DNA of 64,000 bases from an uncultured Anaerolineae bacterium (GTDB lineage: Bacteria; Chloroflexota; Anaerolineae; JAFGEY01): NCBI GenBank assembly GCA_964481205.1, contig CAYZYE010000002.1:3532-67531 (forward strand), written 5' to 3'. The notes below the pieces were generated by a model that did not search any database, had not been told where the DNA came from, and saw only the letters and a list, made by a program, of their open reading frames with translations. Positions 1 to 47,751 of this stretch are shown here, piece after piece. The translations under genes were made by a program, and so were the position numbers. Each line of letters starts with the position of its first letter. Position 1 is the first letter of the stretch.

Positions 1-250
1 CTTTATGCACCTGCTCGATGCAACACAACACATGGCCGCCGGCGTGGACACATTGGGCGCAGCCCCGGACACCTGGCGCGCCGGCGACACGATCGTCCAG
101 CTGCACACCTTTTGGTACCCCGCCGAGGCCGGCGTCTATGCCGTCGAGTTGGGTTGGTACGCGCCGCCGGACGGCCCCCGGCTACCGGTAGACAACGCCG
201 GCGCGCCCGGCCAACGCATCCTCCTCGATCCGCTCAAGGTGTCGCCATGA
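1..250 (+). CDS. 3' fragment of a GT39-like membrane glycosyltransferase paralog; the gene starts upstream of the window, only the C-terminal domain is present
   Basis: The translated C-terminus (ELGWYAPPDGPRLPV...RILLDPLKV) matches the C-terminal domain of the 247..2541 and 7582..10080 proteins. The stop TGA at 248-250 overlaps the next start (ATGA). Confidence 0.5.
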   Translation, partial: FMHLLDATQHMAAGVDTLGAAPDTWRAGDTIVQLHTFWYPAEAGVYAVELGWYAPPDGPRLPVDNAGAPGQRILLDPLKVSP

Positions 251-2541: not shown

Positions 2542-2562
2542 TCCCCGCCTCTGCATTTTGCC

Positions 2563-2691
2563 TAGGGCTGTTCAATTCTAATTCGTGACTAAAGTCACCG
2601 CTGGTGAGGACTCGTCGCCGTAGGGGGACGACCAGCCAACGGCTCACCCAACGCGGTTTCAACCGCTGGATTGTAGAATTGAACAGCCCTG
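2563..2691. mobile_element. MITE-like repeat, family 1, copy 1 (short form). Terminal inverted repeats are CAGGGCTGTTCAATTCTAA ... TTGTAGAATTGAACAGCCCTG
   Basis: Near-identical copies occur at 29438..29600 and 49029..49201. It is flanked by the direct repeat GCATTTTGCC, a TSD-like duplication. Confidence 0.7.
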
Positions 2692-2697
2692 GCATTT

Positions 2698-2726
2698 TGC
2701 CAAAGCGCACCCAGGCGAGTATACTT
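2698..2726 (+). promoter_or_regulatory. Sigma70-like promoter candidate (TTGCCA-17-TATACT) for the 2770..10080 glycosyltransferase operon
   Basis: Hexamers read directly. An AAGAGG RBS precedes the ATG at 2770. Confidence 0.3.
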
Positions 2727-2769
2727 GTGTCCTACAACAGTCCCGCTTTCCTGAGATCAAGAGGCACCG

Positions 2770-5004: not shown

Positions 5005-7585
5005 GCCAGACGCGCGCAAGCACATCGAACGGGGTAACAACCCGCCGGGTCGCGCTGCGAACGCATTTTACAATAAATCTCGTATATTCATCAACACACA
5101 CTGGCCCGACCTGGCGGTCTTGATCGTGTACATTGTCCTCAGCCTGGCCATGTGCTGGCCGCTGCCCGCGCAGTTTGGCGCGCGTCTGGCGGGCGCGCAC
5201 TCGGACGCGCGCGTGTTTCAATGGAACAACTGGTGGATCAAGCAGGCCGTGTTGGCGCTAAAAAACCCAATGCGCACCGGCGCCATCTATTACCCCTCCG
5301 GCGCCTCGCTGTCGAGCCACAACACCAATTGGGTCAGTTCGCTGATCGCTTTGCCCCTCGATCTGCTTTTTGGCCCGGTGGCAGCCTACAACCTCACCTT
5401 TTTGCTCACCCTGTTCCTCGCCGCTTTTGCAATGTACCTGCTGGTGCGACACCTGACCCGGCAGCGCGGCGCGGCGCTGGTGGCCGGGCTGATTTTTGCC
5501 TTTTTCCCCTACCACCTCTCCGGCAACTGGGACGGGCAAATGAACCTCGCCAACATCCAATGGCTGCCCTTGTTCGCGCTCTTTTGCCTGCGCACGGTGC
5601 GCCGGCGCAGATGGCGCGACGCAGTGTGGGCCGGCATCTTTTTGGCCCTGTCCGGCCTCGACTGCCTGTTCTTCCCAATCTTTGCGGGCATGTGGGCGCT
5701 GATCTATGCGCTCTATGTGTTGTCGTTCGAGCGGCGCGCGCTCGACCGGCGGCTGTTCAAATTGGGCGGCGCCGGCGCGCTGGTCGCCCTGACGCTGCTC
5801 GCGCCGGTCATGATCCCGGCGCTGGCTGACGCCCGGCGCGGTTCGACCGAATCGGCGCTCAACTATTACGCCACGGAAAAATCGACCGACCTGCTGGCCT
5901 TTGTGCTGCCCAGCACACAGCACCCATTGCTGGGACGGCTCGTAGCCCCGATCTATGCCGGATTCCAGCACTGGCGTCCGGCGTTTCTGGGCGTAACGCC
6001 GCTGCTGCTGGCATTGTGGGGCCTGCTGCGCGGGCGCAAAAAAGCCGTCTTGTGGGGCGCGGCGCTGCTGTGGTTTGCGCTGCTGTCCCTGGGTACCACC
6101 TTGACCATTCAGGGCGTCGAATACACAAAAGTACCGATGCTTTACGATATTTTAACCAAATGGATTCCGGCGCTCAAGATCATCCGGCAGGCCAGCCGGT
6201 TCAACATCATGGTCATGTTTTCGCTGTCCGTCCTGGCAGGGCTGGGCTGCGCCGATCTGTGTGCGCGACGACACGGCGTCATCGCCGGCGCACTTGGGGC
6301 GATCATTTTGTTCGAGTACCTGGCCTGGCCCTGCCCCACCCTGCCCGCCGAGGTCTCGCCATTTTACACCCAACTGGCGCAAGAGACGGGCGATTTTGCG
6401 ATCCTCGAACTGCCGCTCGACGACTTTTACTCTCGCCGTTCGCTCTATGCGCAGACGATCCACGGCGCCAAATTGGTCAACGGCTACCTGGCCCGCGTCC
6501 CCGCCCACGCGCACGATTTTGTCCAGGGCAACGCGCTGCTGAAAAAGCTGTTCATCCGCATGGAGGTCGATCCCCGCCTGATCGACCTCGAACGCGAGAT
6601 CGGCCTGCTGCGCGCCAACGGCATCCGCTATGTCGTCATCCAAAAGCAGCCGCTCCCACCGCACCCGGCGGTCGAGGCCGGCGTGCAGGCCGGGTGGCGC
6701 GAGTTGTTCGGCCCGGACGTGTTTTACGAGGACGCGGACATTGCCGTCTACCGGCTGACTGCGCCCCGGCTGCCGCCCGCCGAGGCCGGCAAGCCGGTCA
6801 ACGACGACCTCGCGCTGGTCGAGGTGCAAACGCGCCGCGTCGAGGCGGCCGGGCGGCAGTGGCTGCGCGTCGATGTTTTGTGGAGCGCGCGGCAAAAAAT
6901 GACCCGCGATTACCGTTGCCAATTGTCTATCTTTGATGGTCAAGGAATTGAAACGACGTTCGACGATCTGATCTCGCCGCGTTTCCCCACCTCACGCTGG
7001 ACGCCGGGGCTGCTCGTCGCCGAACGCTATGCGTTGCCGATCCCGGCCGCGCTGCCGCCGGGCGAATACCGGCTGGCGATGACGCTTTCGGATGGCCGGC
7101 AAGAGACGGCATATACGACGTCGATCGTCGCGCCGCCAGAGGCGACATCGCTCAGTCCGGCGCTCGACGAGATGCAGGCCAGCGCCGACGTCACCTTTGC
7201 CGGCCGGCTGTGGCTGATCGGCTATACGGCGGCGCAGGACGGCGGGCAGCTCAAACTCGATCTGTACTGGCAGGCGCTGCGGGCCATGGCGGTCGATTAC
7301 AAAATGTTTGCGCACCTGATCGACCCCAACGACGATGCGATTGTCGCGCAGAGCGATTGGATGCCGCGCGACTGGTCTTATCCCACCTCATTGTGGGACC
7401 GCCGGGAAATGTTCATCGACCGGGTTGTGTTGGATGTCGGCGGCGTTGCCCCGGGCCAATACCGGCTGGCCCTGGGCGTGTACCGGCCGGGCGGTGATCG
7501 CCTGACGGCGGTGGACGGCGCGGGGCGCGAGATCGCGGACCATCGCGCGCTCATGGCGCAAATGGTCGAGGTGCGAGCGCCATGA
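4997..7585 (+). CDS. Polytopic membrane protein, putative GT-C glycosyltransferase, carrying two tandem copies of the family C-terminal domain
   Basis: The ATG at 4997 overlaps the upstream stop (ATGA). Hydrophobic N-terminal half. Two repeats of the W-rich ~100 aa domain at the C-terminus. Confidence 0.6.
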   Translation: MSEPDARKHIERGNNPPGRAANAFYNKSRIFINTHWPDLAVLIVYIVLSLAMCWPLPAQFGARLAGAHSDARVFQWNNWWIKQAVLALKNPMRTGAIYYPSGASLSSHNTNWVSSLIALPLDLLFGPVAAYNLTFLLTLFLAAFAMYLLVRHLTRQRGAALVAGLIFAFFPYHLSGNWDGQMNLANIQWLPLFALFCLRTVRRRRWRDAVWAGIFLALSGLDCLFFPIFAGMWALIYALYVLSFERRALDRRLFKLGGAGALVALTLLAPVMIPALADARRGSTESALNYYATEKSTDLLAFVLPSTQHPLLGRLVAPIYAGFQHWRPAFLGVTPLLLALWGLLRGRKKAVLWGAALLWFALLSLGTTLTIQGVEYTKVPMLYDILTKWIPALKIIRQASRFNIMVMFSLSVLAGLGCADLCARRHGVIAGALGAIILFEYLAWPCPTLPAEVSPFYTQLAQETGDFAILELPLDDFYSRRSLYAQTIHGAKLVNGYLARVPAHAHDFVQGNALLKKLFIRMEVDPRLIDLEREIGLLRANGIRYVVIQKQPLPPHPAVEAGVQAGWRELFGPDVFYEDADIAVYRLTAPRLPPAEAGKPVNDDLALVEVQTRRVEAAGRQWLRVDVLWSARQKMTRDYRCQLSIFDGQGIETTFDDLISPRFPTSRWTPGLLVAERYALPIPAALPPGEYRLAMTLSDGRQETAYTTSIVAPPEATSLSPALDEMQASADVTFAGRLWLIGYTAAQDGGQLKLDLYWQALRAMAVDYKMFAHLIDPNDDAIVAQSDWMPRDWSYPTSLWDRREMFIDRVVLDVGGVAPGQYRLALGVYRPGGDRLTAVDGAGREIADHRALMAQMVEVRAP

Positions 7586-10080
7586 GCAGACAAGGCGAAA
7601 TTTTTGTCGCCACGGCGCTGCTGGCGATCATGTTTGCCCTAATGATCACCAGCGCCGTGCAAAAATCACCCACCTATGACGAACAGGTTTATATCTCGCG
7701 CGGTTACGCCTTTGTCAAACGAGGCGACCTGCACATCCTGGTCGGCGAGCCGGTGCTGCTCAACGCGCTCAACGCGCTGCCGCTGCTGGCGCTGCCGGGC
7801 GTCCGTCTGCCCACCGGCCAACCGGCGTGGGCGGGCGACAATTTTCACCCCATCGCCGAGGCGTTCATGTGGCAGGTCAACGCCAACGCCGATCAAATGC
7901 TGTTCCTGGCCCGCGCGCCGACGATGCTGCTCGCGTTGCTGCTGGCCGTTTTTGTCTACCGCTGGGCGCGAGAGGCGTTCGGTCGCGCGGCGGCGCTGCT
8001 GTCACTGGCGCTGTGCGTGTTCGACCCCAACTTGCTCGCCCACGGGCGGCTGGCCGCCACAGATCTCGGCTCGACGGCGCTCATTTTCATCTGTACCTAT
8101 TGGCTGTGGCAATTGCTGCGCCGGCCGTCCTGGGGCAACGTGCTGTGGAGCGGCTTTTTTTTCGGGCTGGCGCAGGCCGCGCGATTTTCGGCGCTGCTCT
8201 TTGCGCCGGGCTTTGCCCTGCTCTTTGCCGCGCGCGTCCTCTCGCCGGCGCCTTTTGCGCTGCCCCGGCGCGGCGCAAGCGTCGAGGTGCGGCCAACGCC
8301 ATCCCCCCAGCCCCGGTGGAAGCGCCTGGTCTGGCTGGCGGCGGCCGGCGCGCTGATCGTGCTGATCGGTTATGCGACTTTGTGGGCTGTACACGGCTTT
8401 CAATGGACGCCGGTCCGTGGCGCGACGACCTGGCCCGTGCCGGCGGCATCTTTGTGGGAACAATTGCGCTACATTTCGGGGCGTCTGTCCGGCGACAAGG
8501 ATCCCGTGACCGGTTTTTTGCTGGGCGAGTTGTATGTGGGCGGCAAATGGCAATATTTTCCGGTGGCGTGGCTGCTAAAAACCCCGCTGCCGACATTGGC
8601 GCTGTGGCTGACCGCCGTTTTCGGCAGCCTCCGTTCTGCGCTGCGACGCGCCGGACCGGATCGCCGGCCGGGGTTGGCCCTCTGGCTGCCCCCGCTGCTC
8701 TATTTTTTGATTACCTTGAACAGCAAACTCAATCTTGGTTATCGCTACATTTTGCCCGTGCTGCCTTTTGCCATCGTGCTGGCCGGGCGGTGTGGAGCAT
8801 GGGCGGTCGAGCGCATCTCGACGCTGGGCGGAGAACGTCGCGCGCTGGCGACATCGTTGGCCGCGCTGGCGGTCGGCTGGGCGGTGTGGAGCGGGATCGA
8901 CATTTGGCCGCATTATCTGGCCTTTTTCAACGAGCTGGCCGGCGGCCCCGACGGAGGCTGGCGCTACCTGGTCGATTCAAACCTCGATTGGGGCCAAGAC
9001 CTCAAACTGCTCAAACGATGGGCAGACGAGCATCACGTCGCCAAGATCAAGCTGGCTTATTACGGCGAGGGCGTCCCCGCGTATTATGGGCTGGACATAG
9101 AGCCGCAAATTTGCTCCCCCGACCGCTGGCAGCACCCCCTGTACCACGATCTCTATTTCGACGACCCCGCGCCCGGCGTATACGCGATCAGCGCCAACCT
9201 GCTTCAGGGGCGCAATCTGGCGCGCCCGGAGACCTATCGCTGGTTCCGCGAGCGCGCCCCGGTGGACAAGGTGGGGTATTCGATTTTCATTTACGAGGTC
9301 CCCCGGTGGGGAGATGAGGCAGTGATCGCGCTGTCGGGGTTGTCGCCGCCGGACATTCGCGCCGAGGATTACGCGCTGCTCGGCGGCAATGATGTGCGCG
9401 TGCTGTGGTTCGACGCCGCGCGGTCGGCGCTTTTTCCGTCCGGCGATCAGCCCACGTTCTCGTTTGTGCCTGGTGAAATGGAAACGCCCCCGGCGCTCGT
9501 ACATTTGGGGGCAGGCGCTTTGCTTCGCTCAAGCACACTCCGCGACGGCCGCCCGCTGCGTATTTTCAAAAATATAGATCGTGTTGATGCGCTACGTTAC
9601 ATTGATTCCCTTGATTTCGCGGCCTGGTATATGCCCGCGTCGACATTTGCGCCCGGCGATCCGGCCGGGCATGGCGCGCCGTTGGGCGCGCCGGTGCGGT
9701 TTGGCTGTGTCGAATTGCTGGGCTATGAATCGAGCCAAAGCAATGCGCTGCCCGGCGAGAGGTTGACGTGGATCACGTACTGGCGCGTCGTCGAGCCGGC
9801 AGCAGAGCCGCTGACGCTGTTTGTCCACCTGCTCGACGCCGGCGGCGTCAATCGCGCGGGCGAGGATCGCGGGGACGTATGGTATGATAACTGGCGGCGC
9901 GGCGACGTATTTGCGCAGCTAGAAGAGATTCAGCTGCCGGCCGAGTTGGCGGCCGGACGTTATCAAGTCGAGATCGGCTGGTACACGCCGAGGACGATGG
10001 CGCGGCTGCCGGTGCTCAAAGAGGGGCAAGAGATCGCCGACCGGATATTGTTGGCGCCGGTGACGATAGCCGACCGGTGA
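7582..10080 (+). CDS. GT39 family membrane glycosyltransferase, paralog of 247..2541
   Basis: ATGA overlap with the upstream gene. Conserved blocks (DEQVYISRGYAF, WRYLVDSNLDWGQDL). Same C-terminal domain. Confidence 0.75.
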   Translation: MSRQGEIFVATALLAIMFALMITSAVQKSPTYDEQVYISRGYAFVKRGDLHILVGEPVLLNALNALPLLALPGVRLPTGQPAWAGDNFHPIAEAFMWQVNANADQMLFLARAPTMLLALLLAVFVYRWAREAFGRAAALLSLALCVFDPNLLAHGRLAATDLGSTALIFICTYWLWQLLRRPSWGNVLWSGFFFGLAQAARFSALLFAPGFALLFAARVLSPAPFALPRRGASVEVRPTPSPQPRWKRLVWLAAAGALIVLIGYATLWAVHGFQWTPVRGATTWPVPAASLWEQLRYISGRLSGDKDPVTGFLLGELYVGGKWQYFPVAWLLKTPLPTLALWLTAVFGSLRSALRRAGPDRRPGLALWLPPLLYFLITLNSKLNLGYRYILPVLPFAIVLAGRCGAWAVERISTLGGERRALATSLAALAVGWAVWSGIDIWPHYLAFFNELAGGPDGGWRYLVDSNLDWGQDLKLLKRWADEHHVAKIKLAYYGEGVPAYYGLDIEPQICSPDRWQHPLYHDLYFDDPAPGVYAISANLLQGRNLARPETYRWFRERAPVDKVGYSIFIYEVPRWGDEAVIALSGLSPPDIRAEDYALLGGNDVRVLWFDAARSALFPSGDQPTFSFVPGEMETPPALVHLGAGALLRSSTLRDGRPLRIFKNIDRVDALRYIDSLDFAAWYMPASTFAPGDPAGHGAPLGAPVRFGCVELLGYESSQSNALPGERLTWITYWRVVEPAAEPLTLFVHLLDAGGVNRAGEDRGDVWYDNWRRGDVFAQLEEIQLPAELAAGRYQVEIGWYTPRTMARLPVLKEGQEIADRILLAPVTIADR

Positions 10081-12163: not shown

Positions 12164-12226
12164 TCGAATCCAGTGGCTACCCTGGGGGAGCTGATCGAGA
12201 TCATCCAGCCATTTTGGGAGCGCCAG

Positions 12227-13444
12227 ATGGCCCAGTACAAGTTCAAATGCCGCCCTTGCCCGCCCCACATCCGCCGACAATGTATCCAAGAAGCGCACGT
12301 CTCGCCTGCGGCAAAACGGATCATCATCCAATCATTTGAAGCAAGAACAGACACGCAAGCGACCTGGGATCTGCTGCAACACAATTGCCTGCTCGTCCGC
12401 CGCGAAAACATGCCCACCATCGCGCCGGTGTCACGCAAGGGAGGTTTGCGAGATCGCCTTTTTGGCCCAGAGCCGCCTCCTGCCCAGGAAGACAAAGCAT
12501 CTCAACAACCGCCCCCCAGCCAGCAGCTGCCCGTGGTCAAACCATACCAGCCGCGTTCCCCGGCTGCTGAACCCACAACGTCTCAGCCGACCACTCAAAC
12601 AGTCTCGCAGACCAGGTTCATCCGCACCCAACGCCCGGCCGATCGCGCCAGAACACCTACGCCTCGGACGGTTCATTTGCCCAGGCCGCAAACACCCGTT
12701 TCCAAGGCGCCAATCCTGCGCTATCCGCGCGCCCGGCAGCCGCACGTCGTTGCCAACGAACAACCCGGACCGAGAATACTGGTCTCGCAGGTGATCGGCC
12801 ACCGCATCTCGCTGCCCACCGACGGCGAGTTGGTGCTGGGGCGCTTTGATCCGTTCACCAAAATCAAGCCCGACATTGACTTGACATTTGAAGACCGGAT
12901 CACCAGGGGCATTTCGCGCCGCCACGCCCAAGTGATCGGTTGGCAAGGACACTATGCGATCAAGGATTTGGGCAGCACCTTTGGCACCTGGGTCAACGAC
13001 AAACGGTTGTCGCTAGAACAAAAACAACCCTTGCGCATCGGCGATATGATCCGGCTGGGTAATTGTGTCCTATTTCTGGACCGTCCGCCAAACCTATGGA
13101 AAACGCCGTTGTCTCTGGAACGCTGCTTTTTCTATTCCACGTTTTCGGGACAATACCTGGCCATCCCGGCCAAACCGGCGATCGTCATCGGGCGCGCCGA
13201 CGCCGGCCTGGGGTTCAAGCCGGACATCGATCTCGGCGCAGAAGAAGAAGCGGCGTCAGCCGTCTCACGACGACATGCCAGACTACTTTGGCGAAACGGG
13301 CAACTCGTCGTCCAAGATTTGGGCAGCACACAACACACCGCGATCGATGGACGCCAGGTGCCCATCGGCGCCAAGACGCCCATCTTGCCCGGACAGCATT
13401 TGTGGTTGGGGGGATACACCATCGCTTTTGATATGGTCGAGTGA
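12227..13444 (+). CDS. Twin FHA-domain protein with an N-terminal Cys-rich motif and a Pro-rich linker
   Basis: Two FHA-like segments (GRxDP...DIDL...SRRHA...GSTxGTWVN...GD.I.LG). The start is at ATG 12227 (GGGAG RBS). The track's alternative start is at 12173. Confidence 0.8.
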   Translation: MAQYKFKCRPCPPHIRRQCIQEAHVSPAAKRIIIQSFEARTDTQATWDLLQHNCLLVRRENMPTIAPVSRKGGLRDRLFGPEPPPAQEDKASQQPPPSQQLPVVKPYQPRSPAAEPTTSQPTTQTVSQTRFIRTQRPADRARTPTPRTVHLPRPQTPVSKAPILRYPRARQPHVVANEQPGPRILVSQVIGHRISLPTDGELVLGRFDPFTKIKPDIDLTFEDRITRGISRRHAQVIGWQGHYAIKDLGSTFGTWVNDKRLSLEQKQPLRIGDMIRLGNCVLFLDRPPNLWKTPLSLERCFFYSTFSGQYLAIPAKPAIVIGRADAGLGFKPDIDLGAEEEAASAVSRRHARLLWRNGQLVVQDLGSTQHTAIDGRQVPIGAKTPILPGQHLWLGGYTIAFDMVE

Positions 13445-21657: not shown

Positions 21658-22364
21658 GCGTTTCCAGAAAAATAACTACCCTGCGTTGCTCTCGCCAGAT
21701 TTGGCAATCCAAGCCGCGCATTCTGGAATAATTTCAAGAGTTATGCGGTTTGTGTTTGAGCCTTTCTAGAACGAAACTTGGGTAATCTGTCATTCTGAGC
21801 CAGCCGTCGCAGGCGGCGCAGTGAAGAATCTTGTGGCTTGAATTTGACATACAAAAAGAGATTCCCTTCGACTGCGCTCAGGGCAGACTTTGTCGCTCCG
21901 CTCCTCACAATGACGGTCCCAGAAAAGTCTTGCTCTAGTACCAGAAAGTCCCAACCATCGAGTTATTGGATAGAACGAGTTGTTTTTTGATATATTTCAG
22001 GCGCAAAACGCCCTCTATGACTCGAACCGCGTAACTCCGGCCAAGATTATCACGCTTGCAATGTGACTTTCTGGCTTGGCGTTTCTATTTGATGCAAGGA
22101 TACCATAGGCATACTGGATACACACCCAACGTGGTTCGGATTAAGGCTGCTCTAGCCGCGTAATCCAAACCGGGCACCCCGCGAAATCCTCCCAGGAGAC
22201 CGCTGAAAAACCCAAGATTAACCAATGACGCAGAGATCATCTTGTATTTGCAAATATCAACAATACTACTCGATGTTTTGTTTCTTTGCGTTCTCTGCGG
22301 TTGGCGGATGCACTGGGAGTTTTTCAGCACACTCTCAGGTCGCTTGACCGGCAAGGACAAGATA

Positions 22365-23159
22365 ATGGTCAACCCACTACCCCATCTCGAAAATTTGGCC
22401 GAGCGATTGGTCGAAGGCACCATCGCCCGCATGCTGGGCGCCCAGGTGCAGCCGCTCGAGGTGGCGCGACGCATTGCGCGAGCCATGGAAGACGGCCAGG
22501 TGATCAACCCCCAGGGCGAGATCGTCGTCCCCAACGAATACCACGTTGCTCTGCACCCCAAAGACCTGTCAGCGATGAACCGATTCCAAGACGCCCTCGA
22601 AACCGAATTGACCCAATACATCTCGAACCTGGCGCGTCAGGCCGGCGCGACAATGGTCGGTCGCCCGCGCGTGACCATCGCCGCGAACCCGGCCACGCCC
22701 TTGAAACATGTGCGCGTGACGGCCCAAGTGGTCAGCGCGCGTCATGGCGCCATCGACGTCACCCACACGCAAGAAATGCCCGCCGTGGCCGCGCTCGCCC
22801 GCGACATCCCTGCTTTTGTCCTTTATGACGGCTATCGACGCATGCCGATCAACGAGGCCATCGTCACCATTGGCCGCAGCCTGGACAACGAGATCATTTT
22901 GGACGACAAACGGGTTTCGCGCCAACACGCGCAACTTCGCCGCCGATACGACCAATACGTACTCTATGACCTCGACTCGACGGGCGGCACCACGGTCAAC
23001 GGCCTGCGCGTGCGAGAGGCCGTTCTACAGCCCGGCGATGTCCTCGCCTTTGCCGGGGTCAAAATCCGGTTCGAGCATACGGCCACGCCATTCGTGCCCA
23101 AAGAAGAACTGGCCTCCGGCGCAACGCGAATCTTGCCTCCCAGAGGAACGCACAAATGA
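22365..23159 (+). CDS. fhaA: FhaA-like protein: DUF3662-type N-terminal domain plus C-terminal FHA
   Basis: Architecture and FHA motif (TIGRSLDNEIILDDKRVSRQHAQL...GTTVNG). The start is ATG 22365 after an AAGGACAAG RBS. Confidence 0.8.
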   Translation: MVNPLPHLENLAERLVEGTIARMLGAQVQPLEVARRIARAMEDGQVINPQGEIVVPNEYHVALHPKDLSAMNRFQDALETELTQYISNLARQAGATMVGRPRVTIAANPATPLKHVRVTAQVVSARHGAIDVTHTQEMPAVAALARDIPAFVLYDGYRRMPINEAIVTIGRSLDNEIILDDKRVSRQHAQLRRRYDQYVLYDLDSTGGTTVNGLRVREAVLQPGDVLAFAGVKIRFEHTATPFVPKEELASGATRILPPRGTHK

Positions 23160-31181: not shown

Positions 31182-32864
31182 ATGAACTGGAAACGACTGT
31201 TCCTGGTTGTCTGCTTGCTGGGCGCACTGTTTGTCGGTGCCGCCCCCAAAGCGGCAGCGCAGGCCTATCGATTCACGGTCGATCGCAACATATCGCACGT
31301 CTACGCCAACAGCGACGGCTCGGCCACCATTGAATACGCCCTCACTTTTAGCTGCGCCCCCGGCGCGCACCCCATCGACATCATTGACGTTGGGCTGCCC
31401 AACAACAGCTATGACCTCGACTCGGCCCAGGCCTGGTTTAGTCCTGGCGCCGGCGGAGAGAAACGACACGCACTGACGAAAATCTATAAATCGTCCGAAG
31501 TCGCGATCGGCGTCGAAGTCCACCTGGGACAATACACGATCAAACCGGGCAGCCAGGGCACGCTCATGTTCCGAATCACGGTCAGGGAAATGGTCTATGC
31601 AGACAGCAAAGACCAGGATTACGCCAGCCTCGAATTTGCGCCCACATTTTACGGCAAAAAATACACCCGGGGCGAAACCTACCTCGAAATCAACTTGCAC
31701 TTTCCCCCCGGCTTGAGCAAAGAAGAACCGCGCTATCACAAGGAACAATATCACAAAGCAACAGTGCAAGACGGGCGATTCGTGTTCACCTACATCTATC
31801 CCAACGCCACCGGTTATGAAACCCACCGGCACGGCATCTCGTTCCCGCGCAAATATGTGGACAAGGTCTACAAAGCGCCGCTAATGATCGGCGGACGCCC
31901 CTTTGACGAGTGGGTCAACATTGTAGTCGAAAAGATCAGCGGCTTTACCTGTTTTGGCGGCATGGTGCTGTTCTTTATCCTCTCATCGGCGATCAGCGCC
32001 GCGCAAAGCAAAAAGCGCAAGATGAAATACCTGCCCCCGGCGCTCTCGGTCGAAGGCGTGGGGATCAAACGCGGCCTCACCGCCGTCGAAGCCGCGATCT
32101 TGCTCGAAACGCCGCTCGACAAAGTGATGACCATGATCCTGTTCGGCATCCTCAAGAAAAAAGGCGTCGTCGTCCTGAGCGAAAACCCGCTCAAACTGGA
32201 AAAGGTCGAGCCCGCGCCCAAAGTCAAATGGCGCGACTATGAAACGACCTTTTTGGAAAGCATCAAAAGCAACGGCAAACTCGACGAGAAAAAACTGCAA
32301 AAAATGGTCGTCGCCTTGATCAAAAACCTCAACAAAAAACTCAAAGGCTTTAGCCGCAAAGAAACGGTCGATTATTACAAAACCATTGTCGATCGCGCGT
32401 GGAAACAGGTTCAGGCCGACACCACGCCGGAGGTCAAATCCAGGCACTTTGATCAGGGACTAGAGTGGATGATGCTCGACAAGAACTTTGACGAACGCAC
32501 CGAAAAAACCTTTCAAAGCGGGCCGGTGTACATGCCGCCCTGGTGGGCCTATTACCGCCCCTGGCGTTCGCGCGTCAACACGTCGCGCATCGGCGGCGGA
32601 ACGGGGTCGCCCGGTCGCAGCGGCGGCAAAGCAGTGACCCTGCCCACTTTGCCCGGCTCGGCCTTTGCCGGCGCCATCGTCAGCGGCATCGAAACCACCG
32701 CCGGCGGCATCGTCAGCAAAGTAGAAAACTTTACCGGCGGCATCACCAGGCGCACCAACCCACCGCCGGTCAGCTCGAGCGGCGGCGGCAGCAGCTCTGG
32801 TGGATGCGCTTGCGCTTGCGCCTGCGCCGGATGCGCCTGCGCCTGCGCCGGTGGCGGGCGGTAA
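31182..32864 (+). CDS. Signal-peptide-bearing membrane protein with a DUF2207-like layout, ending in a Gly/Ser-rich tail with a (Cys-Ala)n repeat (GCACACACAGCACACAGGGR)
   Basis: N-terminal signal peptide and a central TM helix. The tail is encoded by a (TGCGCY)n hexanucleotide repeat at 32806-32850. GAGGAG RBS. Confidence 0.6.
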   Translation: MNWKRLFLVVCLLGALFVGAAPKAAAQAYRFTVDRNISHVYANSDGSATIEYALTFSCAPGAHPIDIIDVGLPNNSYDLDSAQAWFSPGAGGEKRHALTKIYKSSEVAIGVEVHLGQYTIKPGSQGTLMFRITVREMVYADSKDQDYASLEFAPTFYGKKYTRGETYLEINLHFPPGLSKEEPRYHKEQYHKATVQDGRFVFTYIYPNATGYETHRHGISFPRKYVDKVYKAPLMIGGRPFDEWVNIVVEKISGFTCFGGMVLFFILSSAISAAQSKKRKMKYLPPALSVEGVGIKRGLTAVEAAILLETPLDKVMTMILFGILKKKGVVVLSENPLKLEKVEPAPKVKWRDYETTFLESIKSNGKLDEKKLQKMVVALIKNLNKKLKGFSRKETVDYYKTIVDRAWKQVQADTTPEVKSRHFDQGLEWMMLDKNFDERTEKTFQSGPVYMPPWWAYYRPWRSRVNTSRIGGGTGSPGRSGGKAVTLPTLPGSAFAGAIVSGIETTAGGIVSKVENFTGGITRRTNPPPVSSSGGGSSSGGCACACACAGCACACAGGGR

Positions 32865-32892
32865 ACATTACATATCGTAAAGGAGCGATCCA

Positions 32893-34260
32893 ATGTCTAT
32901 CCTTTCTCAACTCAAGCGATTTTTTACCTCGGAACAGCCGCTCGAAAAAGCCATGTACCAATATCGCACCCCGCCCGACGCCGAGGAACGTTTTCGGCTG
33001 CATCTGCGCGTCGAAGCAGACGGCACCGGCATCCTGGTGATCAACGCCTCCAAAGTGCTGCACCTCAACCAGACGGCCACCGAAATGGCAAAAATGATCC
33101 TCGAAGAACTGCCCGCCGAACAAGCCGCCAAACAAATGGCCCGCCGCTACCGGGTCACGCAAGCGCAGGCGCTGGCCGATTACCGGTCACTGCACGACAA
33201 AATCTTTGTCCTGAGCCGCACCGACGAGGTTTGCCCGATCACCTACCTCGATGTGCAGCGCATCGACCCTTTCAAAACCCCCGCCTCGGCGCCCTACCGG
33301 ATGGACCTGGCCCTCACCTATGCCTGCAACGACAACTGTGCGCACTGTTATGTGGCCCGCCCACGCGATTTTCCAACCATGAGCGTGGACAAGTGGAAAA
33401 AGGTGATCGACCGCTGCTGGGATGTGGGCATTCCGCACATCACCTTTACCGGCGGCGAAGCGACACTCTATCCGGGACTGCGCGAACTGGTCGAATACGC
33501 CGAGGATGTGGGACTCGTAACCGGCCTGCTGACCAATGGGCGCAAACTCGCCGACCGCGCCTACCTCGACGGGCTGATCGAGGCCGGCCTCGATCACGTC
33601 CAAATCACCCTCGAATCGCACGACGAGGCAATTCACGACCGGATGGTCGGCGCCGAGGGCGCGTGGCAAGAAACGATGGCCGGGATCAAAAACGCCGTCG
33701 ATGCCGACATTTACATGATGACCAACACCACCCTCACCGACCTCAACGCGCCCACGATTGAAGACACGATCGACCTGCTCGCCGGACTGGGCGTACCCAC
33801 CGTCGCCTGCAACGGCCTGATCTTTGCCGGCAAAGGCGTCGACGTCGGCATCGGCATCCCCGAACACGACCTGGAACCGATCATGGCCCAGGTGCAGGCA
33901 CGAGCCAAGGCGCACGAACTGCGCCTGATCTGGTACACCCCCACCCGCTACTGCGAGTTCAACCCGTTGGAACACGACCTGGGCGTCAAAGGCTGCTCGG
34001 CGGCAAAATACAACATGTGCGTCGAACCAAACGGCGACGTGCTGCCCTGCCAGAGCTATTTCCAAAGCATGGGCAACATCCTCACCGACCCGTGGGAGAG
34101 CATTTGGAACAGCGCGCTGGCCAACTCGATCCGCAACCGCGACTGGCTGCCCGACGAATGTCTCGACTGCCCCGACAAAGAAATCTGCGGCGGCGGCTGC
34201 CCGCTATATGCCGCCGAAGGCGAATACCAATGCCGCGACAGCCAGAACACGGCGGGGTGA
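32893..34260 (+). CDS. Radical SAM / SPASM-domain enzyme with an N-terminal PqqD-like RRE domain (RiPP-maturase-like)
   Basis: CxxxCxxC motif (CNDNCAHC) about 145 aa in. C-terminal Cys-rich SPASM region (CLDCPDKEICGGGCP). The N-terminal 100 aa resemble PqqD/RRE (KVLHLNQTATEMAKMILEELP). AAAGGAG RBS 28 nt after the upstream stop. Confidence 0.85.
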   Translation: MSILSQLKRFFTSEQPLEKAMYQYRTPPDAEERFRLHLRVEADGTGILVINASKVLHLNQTATEMAKMILEELPAEQAAKQMARRYRVTQAQALADYRSLHDKIFVLSRTDEVCPITYLDVQRIDPFKTPASAPYRMDLALTYACNDNCAHCYVARPRDFPTMSVDKWKKVIDRCWDVGIPHITFTGGEATLYPGLRELVEYAEDVGLVTGLLTNGRKLADRAYLDGLIEAGLDHVQITLESHDEAIHDRMVGAEGAWQETMAGIKNAVDADIYMMTNTTLTDLNAPTIEDTIDLLAGLGVPTVACNGLIFAGKGVDVGIGIPEHDLEPIMAQVQARAKAHELRLIWYTPTRYCEFNPLEHDLGVKGCSAAKYNMCVEPNGDVLPCQSYFQSMGNILTDPWESIWNSALANSIRNRDWLPDECLDCPDKEICGGGCPLYAAEGEYQCRDSQNTAG

Positions 34261-34312
34261 GAGCCGATGAAAAAAATGGACGCGCCCCGGCAATGACCTG
34301 GGTAAAAATCTA

Positions 34313-35749
34313 ATGTCAACACAAACCCACCACCTGCATTGGACCCGCCAAGACCAACAACAAAACCCATACCCGCTCCTGCCCTTTGATGTCCCAACCG
34401 GCACGGCGCAGATCACGATCACCTACAACGTCCTCCCAACCTCACCCGAAACCCCCCAGACGCAAAACATCATCGATCTGGGGCTGTTCGATCCGCGCGG
34501 GCACAGCTTTCTCGACGCGCCGGGATTTCGCGGCTGGAGCGGCGGCGCGCGTTCGACGATCACCATCTCGGCCCACCAGGCCACACCCGGCTATTTACCC
34601 GGCCCCATCCAGGCGGGAACCTGGCGCGTGCTGCTGGGCCTGTACCGGATCGCCCCGCAAGGATGCGATCTGGCGATCACGATCACCCTGCAACCGGGCG
34701 ATCCCACGCCCACCGCGCCGCCGGCGTACCCGTCGCCGGGCGTGTTACGCGACCGTCCGGGCTGGTACCGGGGCGACCTGCACTGCCACACCCACCATTC
34801 CGACGCCACCGGCAGCGTCGCCGATCTGGTACAGGCCGCGCGCAGCCAAAACCTCGACTTTATCGCCGTCACCGACCACAACACGATCAGCCACCTGCCC
34901 GATTTGGCGCGGCAGCAAAGCCCGGCGCTGCTGCTGATCCCCGGCATCGAGATCACCACCTATCGCGGGCACGCCAACGTGTGGGGCGTCCGCGAGTGGA
35001 TCGACTTTCGCGCCACCGGCGACGCCGAAATGCGCCGCATCCGCGAGCACGTGTATGCCCTGGGACTGCCCTTTTCGATCAACCATCCCAAACACAACGG
35101 CCCGGCCTGGATGTTCGATGATCTGTTTGACGCCGACGCGGTCGAAGCGTGGCAAGGGCCATGGTGGCTGGGCAACCATGAATCACTGGCCTTTTGGGAA
35201 CGCCTGCTGCGACAGGGCAAACGCATCCCCCTGGTCGGCGGCAGCGACAAGCACCAAAAACCATTCACCGGCGAACTGACGCGCCACGAGGTCGGCATGC
35301 CGACAACCTGGGTCTATGCCCAAAACCTCTCCGAGCGCGCCATCCTGGAAGGCATTCGCGCCGGACACGTGTTTGTCTCCCAATCGCCGCTTGGGCCGCG
35401 CATCGAGTGTACGGCCCAAGCGGGCGGCCAAACCGCAATGCTCGGCGACGAACTAGCCGTCGCTCCGGGACGCGCCATCGACCTGACCTGCCGCATCACC
35501 GGCGGCGCGTCATGCGCCGAAAACGGCGGCCTCTTGCGCGTGATAGACAAAAACGGCGAGACGCGCCGCGTCCGCATTGACGCCGACGACTGGCGCTACA
35601 CCTGGCAGATACGCGCCCACCACCAGGACCACAACTATGTGCGCGTCGAGGTCGTCAAAGCAACCACCGCCCCCCCGGATCAAGACCCGGCACCCTTGGT
35701 TTGCGCGCTCGGCAATCCCATCTATATTCGAGCGCCAAGCCAGGCCTAA
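34313..35749 (+). CDS. PHP-domain (CehA/McbA-like) metallohydrolase with an N-terminal beta-rich domain
   Basis: PHP motif GDLHCHTHHSD, then DFIAVTDHN and IEIT, with a later GGSDKH. Confidence 0.7.
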   Translation: MSTQTHHLHWTRQDQQQNPYPLLPFDVPTGTAQITITYNVLPTSPETPQTQNIIDLGLFDPRGHSFLDAPGFRGWSGGARSTITISAHQATPGYLPGPIQAGTWRVLLGLYRIAPQGCDLAITITLQPGDPTPTAPPAYPSPGVLRDRPGWYRGDLHCHTHHSDATGSVADLVQAARSQNLDFIAVTDHNTISHLPDLARQQSPALLLIPGIEITTYRGHANVWGVREWIDFRATGDAEMRRIREHVYALGLPFSINHPKHNGPAWMFDDLFDADAVEAWQGPWWLGNHESLAFWERLLRQGKRIPLVGGSDKHQKPFTGELTRHEVGMPTTWVYAQNLSERAILEGIRAGHVFVSQSPLGPRIECTAQAGGQTAMLGDELAVAPGRAIDLTCRITGGASCAENGGLLRVIDKNGETRRVRIDADDWRYTWQIRAHHQDHNYVRVEVVKATTAPPDQDPAPLVCALGNPIYIRAPSQA

Positions 35750-42048: not shown

Positions 42049-43947
42049 TCATTCGCCCGACCACTGCGGGTAATAGGTGGACAGCCACGAGTACGGAAAG
42101 TCTTGCATCGACTCGCTCTCGTCGGGGTTTTCGACACCGACGACATAGACGTGATTTTCGCCGTCGATATAGGCAATCTGCGCCCCATCTGGGCTAAAGG
42201 CCGCCTCGGCCCGCAAATGCTCCTCGTCTGCGTGATCGGTGACGGCAATCAGCGTCGCTTCGCCGCCGTCGCGGCCGATCACATAAATGCTCCGCGTCAA
42301 CGGAAAGACCCACTCGACATTGGACATTGCCGAAAAAACCACCCACTCGCCGTCGGGCGACCACTGCGGGGCACTCGCGCATTGACCGTTCCCGGGCCAG
42401 ATCACCTCCAGACCCGAACCGTCAGAATGAATACGCGCCAGATCGCAGTTGCGATGAAAAACGATCCATTCTCCGTCTGGACTCCAGGACGGGGCCGTAT
42501 TGTTTTCGGTTGAGGTAATTTGGCGCAAATCGGTGCCATCGGCGTTGACAATGAAAAGCGAGTGCCCAGCGACTTCGCCGGCGTCAGAGCGAATGCCGCT
42601 CACCACCAGTTGCCGGCCTTCAGGACTCCAAGACACATCGTTGATGTGTTGAAATCCGGCGTCCTGCAGAATCTTGGTTGGCGCTTTTTCTTCCAGCAGC
42701 GAATAGATACACAAACCGTTCCCCAACCCGTCCCACTCGCACGGCGCGACGCGAACGGCTTCCTCGTCCGAACCGTCCCCCGGCAACGTCTCGTCTTCGC
42801 CGAGACCGAGAACGATCAGCGCCGCCCCAACAGCGACCGCCGCCACGACCAGCAGCGCAATCACGCCCCCGGCCCAGGCCCACCAGGGAATTTTTCGCTT
42901 TTTGGGCAGAACCCTGGTTGCCGGCACCGCCGGCTCTGGCTCGACCTGAGTAACACTGGCTTGGACCGCCGGCGGCGGCTTGGGTTCAACGACGGTTTTT
43001 GGCGGCGCCGCCTCGACCGCTGGCGCCGTCTCGATCGGCAGCGGCGCAAACGCATCCAGTTTTTCGACCGGCGACAGAGACGGCGGCATGCGCTGGTCAA
43101 AGCCCAAAATGTCGGTCAATGGCACGGCCTGCGCCGCCCGCTTGAGCGCCGCGCTCATTTCACCGCAACTCTGGTATCGATCCTGCGGGTCTTTGGCCAA
43201 GGCCTTGAGGATGACCAGCTCGATCTGTTCGGGAATAGCCGGATTGACCAGCCGAGGCATCGGCAGCGGCTCGGTGATGTGTTTGATCACCACCGCCATC
43301 GGCGTTTCGGCGTCAAAAGGCACGCGCCCGGTCAACATCTCGTACAAGACCACGCCGAGCGAGTAAATATCGGCGCGGTGGTCGGCCTTTTTGCCCTGTC
43401 CCTGCTCAGGCGACATGTAGGCCGGTGTGCCCACGCCCACGCCAGAAGCGGTCAGCTGCACCGATCCCTCGACCATCTTGGCCAGACCGAAATCCATCAG
43501 CAGCGCCCAGTCACCTCGATCCATCAACACATTCGACGGCTTGACGTCGCGATGAATGATCCCCTGCTCGTGAGCATAATCGAGCGCCTGAGCCAAATGT
43601 TCAATGATCTCGATCGCCCGTTCGGTTTCCACCGCTCCGGCCACGATCATATCTTTGAGCGTGCCGGCGGGCACATATTTCATCGCAATAAAAGTATAGT
43701 CGCCTTCCCGGCCAAAATCATAGACCGGCAAAATGTGAGGGTGTTCCAACCGCGCCACGGCCTTGGCTTCGCGAATAAAGCGTTCGGCAAAGCCCTGCTC
43801 ATGTACGTAATAAGGAGGCAGCACCTTGATCGCCACGTATCGCTCCAGCGACGGCTGAAAGGCCTTGAATACCGAAGCCATGCCGCCCTGTCCCAACGGT
43901 TCGATAATGCGATATTGTCCCAAAGTTTGTCCGGTTAAATCTTGCAT
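42049..43947 (-). CDS. Ser/Thr protein kinase with a TM helix and an extracellular PD40/TolB-like beta-propeller
   Basis: Hanks kinase motifs (GQGGMASVFKA, HRDVKPSN, DFGLAK). One TM helix. Repeated SWSPDGEW / FSPDG motifs at the C-terminus. The start is at MQDLTG with a GGAGGA RBS. Confidence 0.85.
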   Translation of the reverse strand: MQDLTGQTLGQYRIIEPLGQGGMASVFKAFQPSLERYVAIKVLPPYYVHEQGFAERFIREAKAVARLEHPHILPVYDFGREGDYTFIAMKYVPAGTLKDMIVAGAVETERAIEIIEHLAQALDYAHEQGIIHRDVKPSNVLMDRGDWALLMDFGLAKMVEGSVQLTASGVGVGTPAYMSPEQGQGKKADHRADIYSLGVVLYEMLTGRVPFDAETPMAVVIKHITEPLPMPRLVNPAIPEQIELVILKALAKDPQDRYQSCGEMSAALKRAAQAVPLTDILGFDQRMPPSLSPVEKLDAFAPLPIETAPAVEAAPPKTVVEPKPPPAVQASVTQVEPEPAVPATRVLPKKRKIPWWAWAGGVIALLVVAAVAVGAALIVLGLGEDETLPGDGSDEEAVRVAPCEWDGLGNGLCIYSLLEEKAPTKILQDAGFQHINDVSWSPEGRQLVVSGIRSDAGEVAGHSLFIVNADGTDLRQITSTENNTAPSWSPDGEWIVFHRNCDLARIHSDGSGLEVIWPGNGQCASAPQWSPDGEWVVFSAMSNVEWVFPLTRSIYVIGRDGGEATLIAVTDHADEEHLRAEAAFSPDGAQIAYIDGENHVYVVGVENPDESESMQDFPYSWLSTYYPQWSGE

Positions 43948-44044
43948 CAGAATCCTCCCCCTCCCACCCACACGCAGATATGTGCCTCCCACCAGCTACC
44001 ATTTTAACACGTTCTGATGTTAAATTCAAGCAGCACTTGCGCAA

Positions 44045-46830: not shown

Positions 46831-47013
46831 AAAAAAGTTGGTGTTGGGCCGCCGTTCATCGACGCTGTGAGCGGTGATAGGATCGATAGATCAAAGGAGG
46901 TTTGTATGCCGGAACTGACAGACGGGTGTGTCAAGCCCGCAGGCGGGCCAGTGTTGCCCGCGCCAAAAGCAGCTGTCCCGGTTGCGGGAACAGCACCATC
47001 ACAGGAGGTCAAA

Positions 47014-47607
47014 ATGTTAGCGCGCGTTGGTCAAAAAGCCATTGATTTTGAAGCCACGGCCTTTGTCGCCGGAACGGGATTCAAACCGGTCAAACTGTCC
47101 GACTATGAGGGTAAATGGGTTGTGCTCTGTTTCTATCCGGGTGATTTCACCTTTGTTTGACCGACCGAATTGGCAGCGGTCGCTGCCCTTTATGCGGATT
47201 TTCAGGCGCTGGGTGTCGAGATATTGTCCTTGAGCACCGACAGTCGCTTTGTACACAAAATCTGGCAAGAACAAGAACTATCCAAGATGGTCGATGGCGG
47301 GGTGCCTTTTCCGATGCTCTCGGACGGCGGCGGCAAGATCGGCGCCGTCTATGGCGTGTACGATGAAATGGCCGGCGTCGACATCAGAGGACGGTTCATC
47401 ATCGATCCCGACTTTGTCATTCGGGCGATGGAAGTGCTGACCCCAGAAGTGGGACGCAACCCGGCCGAGTTGCTCCGGCAGATCAAGGCTTTCCAACACG
47501 TGCGCGAGACGGGTCAGGTCACTCCGTCGGGGTGGCAGCCCGGAGGGACCACACTCACACCAGGGCCGGATTTGGTGGGCGCGGTGTGGAAAGTTTGGAA
47601 ACCATAA
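47014..47607 (+). CDS. Peroxiredoxin (AhpC/TSA family) with an in-frame TGA at the peroxidatic Cys position: candidate selenocysteine-containing peroxiredoxin (PrxU-like)
   Basis: The reading frame is continuous across the TGA at 47158-47160: ...[14 protein letters not shown]-[TGA][14 protein letters not shown].... Canonical Prx blocks follow ([19 protein letters not shown]). AGGAGG RBS before the ATG. Confidence 0.7.
47171..47190 (+). promoter_or_regulatory. Candidate bacterial SECIS hairpin GGCAGCGGUCGCUGCC, starting ~12 nt after the UGA
   Basis: Perfect inverted repeat with a GGU-containing apical region. It resembles the E. coli fdhF SECIS upper stem-loop. Confidence 0.45.
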
Positions 47608-47751
47608 GCGCCGGCGAGTGAATTTGCCTGCCAGGCGGGAGGCGGCCCAACACCCGGCCTCTCGGTATTATTTTTCAAACGGCCCCCACCCGGCAACATT
47701 GGGTGGGGGTTGACCATTAGCGGTGCTATTGGCGCAAAAAAGGGAGTAAAT

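Follow-up and report, generated by a model that had tools for sequence, protein, structure and literature searches.

The interval from 46906 to 47607 of the window (the whole 64,000-nucleotide stretch that was analysed, from an uncultured Anaerolineae bacterium) is very probably a functional selenoprotein gene, judging from comparisons of its sequence with orthologous loci. Its predicted product is a PrxU-family peroxiredoxin with a thioredoxin fold, in which selenocysteine (Sec) is encoded by an in-frame UGA. A preliminary description of the same DNA had proposed a Sec-containing peroxiredoxin of the PrxU kind together with a bacterial SECIS, and this reading was borne out by the score against the family model NF040737, by the retention of TGA across orthologs and by a covarying downstream hairpin. 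We consider the comparative data decisive because they combine TGA in 79 of 80 orthologous loci with covariation of the hairpin, and we infer that the source organism decodes this UGA as Sec. The features discussed below are listed in Table 1.

Table 1. Positions in the window of the prxU gene and of the elements within and around it.
Feature	Position	Strand	Remarks
Shine-Dalgarno (SD) sequence AAAGGAGG of upstream start	46893..46900	+	5 nt before ATG 46906, from sequence
prxU CDS, long form	46906..47607	+	233 aa; Sec is codon 85; TAA stop 47605-47607
N-terminal arm motif M-x6-C8-V-x-P-x-x-G-P-[IVL]	46906..46953	+	Cys8 TGT 46927-46929
Internal SD GGAGG (47004-47008) and in-frame ATG (47014-47016)	47004..47016	+	would give 197-aa arm-less form
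Cys75 codon TGT in VVLCFYPGD	47128..47130	+	10 residues before Sec; 81/81 sequences
Active-site segment P78-G-D-F-T82-F-V-U85-P-T-E (PxxxTxxU)	47137..47169	+	motif invariant, 81 sequences
UGA codon, Sec85, predicted peroxidatic residue	47158..47160	+	TGA in 79/80 species-representative loci
SECIS upper hairpin, stem GGCAGC/GCUGCC, loop GGUC (47178-47181)	47172..47187	+	starts 11 nt after UGA
V205-T206-P-S-G-W at canonical resolving-Cys (VCP) site	47518..47535	+	Thr here; from translation

Reading frame, family and the UGA codon

As had been described, the reading frame is uninterrupted across the TGA; read from the sequence, it is open throughout except for this codon, as far as the TAA stop. 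The gene start required correction. It had been placed at 47014, which is an internal start, and the coding sequence begins at the SD-preceded ATG 46906; the long form spans the PrxU profile from one end to the other. With U entered as C for scoring, the 233-aa form reached 371.3 bits against the peroxi_PrxU equivalog NF040737 (Sec-containing thioredoxin-dependent peroxiredoxin; cutoff 270 bits), covering profile positions 2-230 of 233, and the 197-aa short form reached 358.7 bits, while the score against the AhpC equivalog TIGR03137 was below threshold (180.7-181.5 bits vs. a cutoff of 272). Pfam domains AhpC-TSA (PF00578, 1.7e-37) and 1-cysPrx_C were found in the product, the closest solved structures are those of AhpC and Prx2, which match at E about 1e-45 and align at the Cp position, and tblastn matched residues 1-233 in most of 80 genomes.

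The PrxU family is already known and widespread, and the window gene is an ordinary member of it. Carriers of prxU include an isolate, Desulfothermobacter acidiphilus (L028). Sec-peroxiredoxins had been called rare, which they are not: a scan for relatives returned at least 600 matching stretches, at least 587 of them encoding relatives, and the family has its own curated NCBIfam model. Reviews place the Sec-Prx family among the experimentally verified selenoproteins (PMC13188914, PMC1794560); in the part of the former that cites Söhling et al. (2001), Sec-Prx (TxxU) appears as an experimentally verified bacterial selenoprotein, and PxxxTxxU is given as its motif (PMC13188914). No partner gene was kept in the neighborhood of prxU across the 80 loci. 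ORFs resembling Fur/PerR, rubrerythrin and FAD-oxidoreductases, recognized by eye, were each present at no more than 8 of the 80 prxU loci, and none was present in this window.

In translation the codon reads FYPGDFTFV-[TGA]-PTELAAVAA, in agreement with the active-site context FYPGDFTFV-U-PTELAA reported previously. In alignments with AhpC and Prx2, Sec85 falls on their peroxidatic Cys, the conserved Arg corresponds to R161, and the Thr and Arg columns are invariant in our alignment (A2); the AF2 model of a homolog in the Cys form (P0008) has a pLDDT of 85. Among 80 GTDB species representatives, drawn from Chloroflexota, Desulfobacterota, Acidobacteriota, Ignavibacteria, Zixibacteria and others, the aligned codon is TGA in 79 and TGC in one (L058), and conservation of the ORF extends to either side of the TGA in the orthologous loci. 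Relatives with TGC and no conserved hairpin had been named in the preliminary description as evidence that would speak against Sec, and the opposite was found, with TGA nearly universal and the hairpin conserved. A nonsense mutation, or a sequencing or assembly error changing TGC to TGA in a Cys-peroxiredoxin, is consequently very unlikely. Such an event would require a single base, as TGA is one base from TGC or TGT, and L058 combines the same hairpin with TGC; however, the occurrence of TGA at the exact codon in 79 of 80 independent species-level genomes effectively refutes it, protein-level conservation persists 3′ of the TGA, and the downstream hairpin is maintained by selection at synonymous sites.

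Reading of TGA as Trp or Gly under an alternative genetic code would also keep the frame open. In 46 of 120 homologs among the matches listed, W stands at the Sec position (DFTFVWPTE). However, these W calls are all metagenome entries (lgn/jgi/ena), the top-ranked ones being on contigs of about 1-2 kb, and Trp at this catalytic Cys/Sec site would abolish activity. TGA is moreover a normal stop in the window, where it ends 7 of 17 genes whose ends match curated family profiles, and RpoA places the source organism in the Anaerolineae. We regard an alternative code as extremely improbable, and many of the DFTFVWPTE proteins in databases are apparently products of code-4 gene calling in which TGA was translated as Trp.

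If the organism had lost its Sec machinery, UGA would terminate translation and an otherwise intact prxU, descended from a Sec-using lineage, would be a recently inactivated relic. Evolutionary loss of the Sec trait and of selenoproteins has been documented (PMC1794560). ARAGORN found no tRNA, and hence no tRNA-Sec, in the 64-kb window, and NCBIfam scans found selA, selB and selD absent among its 29 largest ORFs. Nevertheless, sel genes are rarely expected in 64 kb, so that their absence from the window says little. The ORF, both starts, the arm, the active site and the perfect SECIS are all intact, and a near-identical copy of the gene from another metagenome sample (L081) keeps the TGA and the same hairpin, which makes a relic unlikely. 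Selenoproteins have been reported in Chloroflexi (PMC1794560, PMC5736913), which is support at the level of the lineage only. A scan of the window for further selenoprotein genes with in-frame TGA codons returned only antisense frames or adjacent genes sharing a frame, its sensitivity being limited, as the filter missed prxU itself. In our reading of the prxU sequence, the source organism is probably a selenium user with a Sec-based peroxide defense.

The hairpin downstream of the UGA

The preliminary description had noted a perfect inverted repeat about 12 nt downstream of the TGA. The repeat (GGCAGC-GGTC-GCTGCC) is present and also appears in the MFE fold, and the spacing is 11 nt rather than 12; it is the same in all 80 loci, which align here without gaps. 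The stem comprises 6-7 bp. Among 74 distinct sequences the loop is GGUC in 39 and AGUU in 33, and its central G-U is invariant (81/81). In a set of 79 distinct hairpin sequences, 78 of which carry TGA, 94% of stem cells are paired. The covariation score was 0.345, compared with 0.185±0.012 after shuffling (0/500) and at most 0.169 in slid registers. Four of the seven pairs vary on both sides, with compensatory changes in 70 cells: pair 17:26 occurs as A-U (14), G-C (56-61) or G-U (4) with no mispairs, and pair 20:23 is either G-C (39-40) or A-U (33-37).

Part of this stem is dictated by the encoded Ala-Ala-Val-Ala-Ala, as GCN GCN GUN GCN GCN is inherently self-complementary, and one could therefore regard the hairpin as a by-product of coding, with readthrough driven by other means. 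The RNAalifold consensus, which retains just three pairs, and the lack of a match in Rfam, scanned over the whole window at the gathering threshold and over 46900-47700 at E <= 10, are in keeping with this view; the latter scan gave a sub-threshold chance match to twister-sister on the minus strand. However, the covarying sites are synonymous third positions, which are free under coding, and those of the stem are limited to purines on the 5′ side and pyrimidines on the 3′ side. For each third-position column of the stem, the top mutual-information partner is its predicted pairing partner (0.92, 0.50 and 0.37 bits, as opposed to at most 0.16 with any other third position). Strong/weak correlations between stem columns and other third positions were near zero, and these two controls ruled out GC content as the source of covariation. 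Between the UGA and the hairpin lie the P-T-E codons, whose third positions vary freely. The pattern is also relaxed in true Cys forms, in which the closing pair is broken in 2 of 5, compared with 1 of the 79 distinct sequences; in the TGC ortholog L058 the hairpin is still perfect. We conclude that a mere by-product of coding is highly improbable and favor a SECIS.

The window sequence alone supports the significance of the hairpin only partly. The local folding energy of the single sequence is unremarkable (z = 0.03), and the window contains, on both strands together, 52 perfect hairpins with 6-bp stems and 4-nt loops, among which that of prxU alone has an RGUY loop. By chance, a TGA followed after 11 nt by such a hairpin would be expected in about 0.8 cases, estimated as 52 hairpins × 1/64. 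One further combination of a TGA, 11 nt and a perfect hairpin was seen on the minus strand near 33593-33607 and was rejected, as a radical SAM gene with strong matches to protein families occupies the opposite strand.

If the hairpin works as in the established Sec pathway of bacteria, SelB·GTP·Sec-tRNA(Sec) would bind it as the ribosome meets the UGA, leading to selenocysteine insertion. Recoding would thus yield a protein of 233 aa (197 aa if translation begins at the internal ATG) instead of a truncation of 84 residues.

N-terminal arm, two start sites and the resolving thiol

The replacement of the usual resolving-Cys context VCP by VTPSGW, described previously, holds for the whole family: the consensus is EVtPsGW, no Cys column exists in 81 sequences, and AhpC and Prx2 chains have VCPA at the aligned C-terminal position. 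Two other cysteines are conserved. Cys75 is found in every sequence and also in arm-less Cys forms (L086 and L087), and in AhpC and Prx2 the aligned position is Phe. Cys8, present in 80 of 81 sequences, lies in an N-terminal arm that is 36 residues long in the window gene and its 80 closest relatives and in which the conserved motif is followed by a variable Pro/Ala-rich linker reaching to about 47013. The homologous upstream start is preceded by an SD sequence in 79 of 83 loci, with the arm Cys usually 7 codons later. In 84 of 85 loci the arm is read in frame without interruption, its invariant residues use all synonymous codons (TGT 45, TGC 39, etc.), and the distance from Cys to Sec is confined to 74-78 codons. 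These patterns indicate that the arm is under selection at the protein level. In the AF2 model of P0008, residues 11-20 also have a pLDDT of 85, with a strand at residues 14-16.

General Prx chemistry suggests that Thr82 and Arg161 would activate the selenolate of Sec85, which would reduce H2O2 or an organic hydroperoxide and become a selenenic acid; a thiol would resolve this acid to a selenenylsulfide that is then reduced by a thioredoxin-type reductant. The invariant Cys8 on the length-constrained arm is, as a hypothesis only, the most likely resolving thiol, with Cys75 or an external thiol as alternatives, and the arm Cys may thus replace the missing C-terminal resolving Cys. If Cys8 does resolve, the tether would represent a topology outside the standard Prx classes. 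In the reviews citing the original PrxU description we found no mechanistic detail, and our literature search, reviews included, found no description of an N-terminal Cys arm with dual starts.

The internal SD and start are kept in 79 of 85 loci, 71 of them with the full GGAGG, in the arrangement GGAGG-N5/8-ATG. The GGAGG occurs in three codon registers, in which it encodes different residues, and peaks at the internal-start position in 75 of 85 genes, compared with at most 26 of 85 at other sites. True short-form genes start at the position homologous to the internal ATG. It is conceivable, and we suggest it tentatively as the less probable case, that two PrxU isoforms are made from one ORF via the two starts: a long form in which the Cys8 tether supplies the resolving thiol, and a short form consisting of an arm-less core of the 1-Cys type, the ratio of which could tune oligomer recycling.

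An apparent resemblance between the arm and the N-terminal part of vertebrate Prx4 was dismissed. When the full-length sequence is aligned to 3QPM, Cys falls on Cys and AGG on AGG, but an arm-only family profile did not recover Prx4 and had an unrelated best match in the PDB (E = 0.55), indicating coincidence.

Annotation and comparison with known systems

As a Sec-peroxiredoxin, the gene is of import mainly for annotation. Gene callers routinely cut PrxU genes in two at the TGA, as had been anticipated for this one: the public annotation of the same contig holds only a truncated 145-aa call (P0044), and the 145-aa call of the L081 copy is identical to P0044 and 99% identical to the window translation. 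With copies either split in this way or mistranslated with Trp, selenoproteins are systematically under-reported in MAGs of Anaerolineae and many other anaerobes. The N-terminal Cys arm and internal start are scientifically more interesting than the identity as Sec-Prx. If confirmed, they would define how members of the widespread PrxU family are recycled and would contribute a clear example of programmed dual initiation in bacteria.

The window gene belongs to the same equivalog family (NF040737) as PrxU of Eubacterium (Peptoclostridium) acidaminophilum. The two share Sec in place of the peroxidatic Cys in TxxU, the lack of a C-terminal resolving Cys and a SECIS directly 3′ of the UGA. They differ in that the window gene comes from an uncultured member of the Anaerolineae rather than the Clostridia, and in that it and its 80 closest relatives bear the 36-residue Cys arm and the internal second start. 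The E. acidaminophilum protein is reportedly about 203 aa long and would match the short form.

The hairpin had been likened to that of E. coli fdhF, and this comparison is apt: both have the 11-nt spacing from the UGA and a GGUC loop with exposed G-U, and both lie inside the coding sequence (5,419 of 5,426 E. coli genomes contain the fdhF sequence used for the comparison). In E. coli, a bulged U in the upper stem is important for SelB binding. Unlike the fdhF element, the 6-7 bp stem of prxU is perfect and without a bulged U, and there is no conserved lower stem around the UGA, given the free variation of third positions in the stretch from the UGA to the hairpin. By analogy, the prxU element would work like the fdhF SECIS, with an architecture that is not an exact copy of it.

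Finally, typical 2-Cys peroxiredoxins of the AhpC/Prx1 type (Amphibacillus xylanus AhpC, 1WE0; human Prx2, 1QMV) have the same fold as the prxU product, as well as the DFTFVxPTE loop, the conserved Arg and the 1-cysPrx_C C-terminal domain. In contrast to them, the prxU product is predicted to have Sec for the peroxidatic Cys, and it has Thr206 for the resolving Cys of VCP, Cys75 where they carry Phe, and an extra N-terminal arm.

Reading frame and in-frame TGA of prxU

The preliminary description placed a peroxiredoxin gene at 47014-47607. Translating this frame, we found the TGA to be its sole interruption, and both the residues around it, FYPGDFTFV-[TGA]-PTELAAVAA, and VTPSGW at the C-terminal motif position were as described. 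The proposed start was not retained, as the frame stays open upstream to ATG 46906 and encodes a 233-aa product. Scored against the NCBIfam PrxU profile (cutoff 270), it reaches 371.3 bits and covers the model over its whole length (positions 2-230 of 233); the 197-aa form beginning at 47014 scores 358.7 bits and covers positions 35-230 only. PrxU is the only equivalog model passed, the AhpC equivalog giving 181 bits against a cutoff of 272. The gene should be annotated as a CDS at 46906-47607 with a transl_except for Sec at 47158-47160.

Features of prxU and of the surrounding window
Feature	Position	Strand	Basis
Upstream Shine-Dalgarno (SD), AAAGGAGG	46893-46900, 5 nt before ATG 46906	+	sequence reading
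prxU CDS, long form, 233 aa, Sec at codon 85	46906-47607	+	ORF reading and PrxU profile
Cys8 codon within arm motif	46927-46929 (arm 46906-46953)	+	translation
Internal SD GGAGG and in-frame ATG	47004-47008; ATG 47014	+	sequence reading
Cys75 codon	47128-47130	+	translation
In-frame TGA (Sec codon)	47158-47160	+	frame reading
Hairpin GGCAGC-GGTC-GCTGCC, perfect inverted repeat	47172-47187, 11 nt after TGA	+	sequence
C-terminal motif VTPSGW	47518-47535	+	translation
Four consecutive large ORFs, 809/744/862/832 aa	112-10080	+	ORF calling
Two FHA-domain proteins	12173-13444 and 22242-23159		
dnaA	20185-21657		
Radical SAM/SPASM-domain protein	32893-34260 (region 31182-35749)	+	weak similarity to PqqE, SbtM peptide maturases
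PknB-type Ser/Thr kinase fused to TolB-like β-propeller region	42049-43992	-	

Scanning one genome per GTDB species, we found at least 587 relatives, and codons were compared in the best 80 of these (65-81% identity), which come mostly from Anaerolineae and other Chloroflexota, the remainder including Desulfobacterota, Acidobacteriota, Ignavibacteria, Zixibacteria and Bacillota. The pattern that would speak against Sec, relatives having TGC and no hairpin, was looked for among them; TGA occupies exactly the homologous codon in 79 of the 80 loci, the hairpin is conserved, and protein-level conservation runs on past the TGA in the family alignment. The only TGC ortholog, L058:3247 (Acidobacteriota MAG JBMFRA010000021.1), retains a perfect hairpin, GGCGGC-GGTC-GCCGCC, which would fit a recent interconversion of Sec and Cys. 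Since TGA is the ordinary stop of 7 of the 17 family-matched genes of the window, reassignment of this codon in the genetic code is excluded.

Automated callers split the gene, as had been anticipated: a 145-aa C-terminal fragment, P0044, was called on the source contig. Orthologs appear in the database either as such 145-aa fragments (87-99% identity, P0044 included) or as 'full-length' proteins reading DFTFVWPTE. W was found at the Sec position in 46 of 120 database homologs among the matches listed (P0001-P0007, P0010 and others), and Arg in P0046. The DFTFVWPTE entries, on short metagenome contigs, look like TGA read as Trp by code-4 gene calling, and like a systematic mis-annotation of selenoproteins.

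Conservation and covariation of the hairpin

The perfect inverted repeat reported just downstream of the TGA was confirmed. Taken alone, it is not statistically remarkable: single-sequence folding gave a z-score of 0.03, and the window contains 52 perfect hairpins with a 6-bp stem and a 4-nt loop, among which that of prxU alone has an RGUY loop. The case is carried by the comparative data. In 81 sequences, aligned without gaps around the TGA and hairpin, the loop reads either GGUC or AGUU and its central G-U is invariant; across the 79 distinct sequences, 94% of stem cells are paired. Three stem pairs are formed between third positions of Leu, Ala and Val codons, where changes are synonymous; the paired columns covary, with G-C 61, A-U 14, G-U 4 and no mispairs at columns 24:33, and G-C 40, A-U 37, G-U 1 and one mispair at columns 27:30. 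The covariation score was 0.345, compared with 0.185±0.012 after shuffling (0/500), and was at most 0.169 in any slid register, including ±3, where codon phase is kept. Genome GC content as the source of this third-position covariation was refuted by two controls: the top mutual-information partner of every stem third-position column was its predicted partner (0.92, 0.50 and 0.37 bits; others at most 0.16), and strong/weak correlations of the stem columns with other third positions were approximately zero. Between UGA and hairpin, the Pro-Thr-Glu codons vary freely at their third bases, and a lower stem is therefore not conserved.

In genuine Cys-form relatives the hairpin is relaxed, the closing pair being broken in 2 of 5 versus 1 of 79 distinct TGA-set sequences; in this small sample (n=5) the stem is degraded in two and still perfect in one. 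No Rfam match to the hairpin was found in scans of the window and around prxU. Its spacing and loop are the same as in the E. coli fdhF SECIS (UGA + 11 nt + GGUUGCA[GGUC]UGCACC, confirmed in 5,419 of 5,426 E. coli genomes), which differs in having a bulged U. With the PrxU equivalog passed, the TGA kept and the hairpin covarying, the proposed PrxU-type Sec-peroxiredoxin is upheld, and prxU is very probably a genuine PrxU-family selenoprotein gene carrying an fdhF-like SECIS.

A second TGA followed after 11 nt by a perfect 6-bp hairpin, at about 33593-33607 on the minus strand, is antisense to the radical SAM gene; approximately 0.8 are expected by chance, and we judged it coincidental.

Two start sites and an N-terminal cysteine

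Of 83 loci, 79 have an SD ahead of the upstream start. ATG 47014, although not the gene start, belongs to a conserved internal start: in 79 of 85 homologous loci (L001-L085) a GGAGG-type SD precedes an in-frame ATG, GTG or TTG just ahead of the Prx core. The spacing is either 5 or 8 nt in 69 of these, and the full GGAGG is present in 71. This SD is conserved as nucleotide sequence across three codon registers (coding QEV, KEA, LEA, KGG, RRE and others). Where the dominant register is used, Glu is encoded by GAG without exception, whereas 55% of Glu codons elsewhere in these genes are GAA, and GGAGG is found at the internal-start position in 75 of 85 genes compared with at most 26 at any other position. 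Two genes that truly lack the arm, L086 and L087, are Cys forms, and their starts lie at the homologous site. Two conserved SD-bearing starts suggest that a long, arm-bearing isoform and a short one may be produced.

The arm motif around Cys8 is M-x6-C-V-x-P-x-x-G-P-[IVL], and a linker of variable sequence joins it to the core. The arm is uninterrupted and in frame in 84 of 85 loci, with its invariant residues encoded by all synonymous codons (TGT 45, TGC 39, etc.). Conserved Cys/Sec columns number exactly three in the alignment of 81 family sequences, namely Cys8 (80/81), Cys75 (81/81) and Sec85, and the canonical C-terminal resolving position holds Cys in none. The distance from Cys8 to Sec is restricted to 74-78 residues, and the arm is retained in Cys-form relatives. 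In the AlphaFold2 prediction for P0008, a Cys-form homolog (pLDDT 85, pTM 0.85), pLDDT was 85 for arm residues 11-20, with a β-strand at 14-16, 58-68 for the linker and 68 for the active-site loop. We infer that prxU may give two isoforms and that the arm Cys8 is the likeliest resolving thiol; alternatively, though less probably, this role may fall to Cys75, which is present also in arm-less forms, or to an external thiol. A likeness of the arm to the Prx4 N-terminal region found no support from an arm-only family profile.

N-terminal signal peptides in the PrxU-family proteins P0041, P0045 and P0049-P0052 (263-275 aa) would imply exported versions. In P0041 the CV-x-P arm motif directly follows the signal peptide, and the NCBI entry for P0050, from Neorhodopirellula pilleata, carries the name PrxU.

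Genomic context and relation to known peroxiredoxins

The window is core chromosome (dnaA, rho, rpoA, rpsD, secY, ftsW, PBP2), and its RpoA is closest to those of 'Anaerolineae bacterium' MAGs (76-81% identity). We found no tRNA and saw no other selenoprotein candidates in the window, and selA, selB and selD were absent among its 29 largest ORFs. Sec decoding in the source genome is thus our inference; Chloroflexi are on record as having selenoproteins (PMC1794560, PMC5736913). No conserved neighbour of prxU was found in 80 loci, Fur/PerR-, rubrerythrin- and FAD-oxidoreductase-like ORFs (judged by eye) each occurring in at most 8.

Elsewhere, the block at 112-10080 is GC-richer (~64% vs ~56% outside it), and its four ORFs gave no NCBIfam match at E ≤ 1e-5. 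The radical SAM/SPASM gene is flanked by a 560-aa ORF without a family match and a CehA/McbA-family metallohydrolase, and this region could be a peptide-modification cluster. The ftsW and PBP2 genes lie apart from the kinase gene.

The prxU product contains the Pfam domains AhpC-TSA (1.7e-37), Redoxin and 1-cysPrx_C. Among solved structures it comes closest to the typical 2-Cys peroxiredoxins Amphibacillus AhpC (1WE0) and human Prx2 (E ~1e-45), whose peroxidatic Cys aligns with the TGA and whose resolving Cys aligns with Thr206. Sec-peroxiredoxins, previously described as rare, are instead common: besides the relatives counted here, the family (TxxU) is among the experimentally verified bacterial selenoproteins (PMC13188914, PMC9312934, both citing Söhling et al., 2001), was the fifth most frequent in a 2006 census (PMC1794560) and has a curated NCBI equivalog model. 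The proposal thus holds, but for a kind of gene that was known before; the dual-start, N-terminal-Cys architecture is the sole part that may be new.
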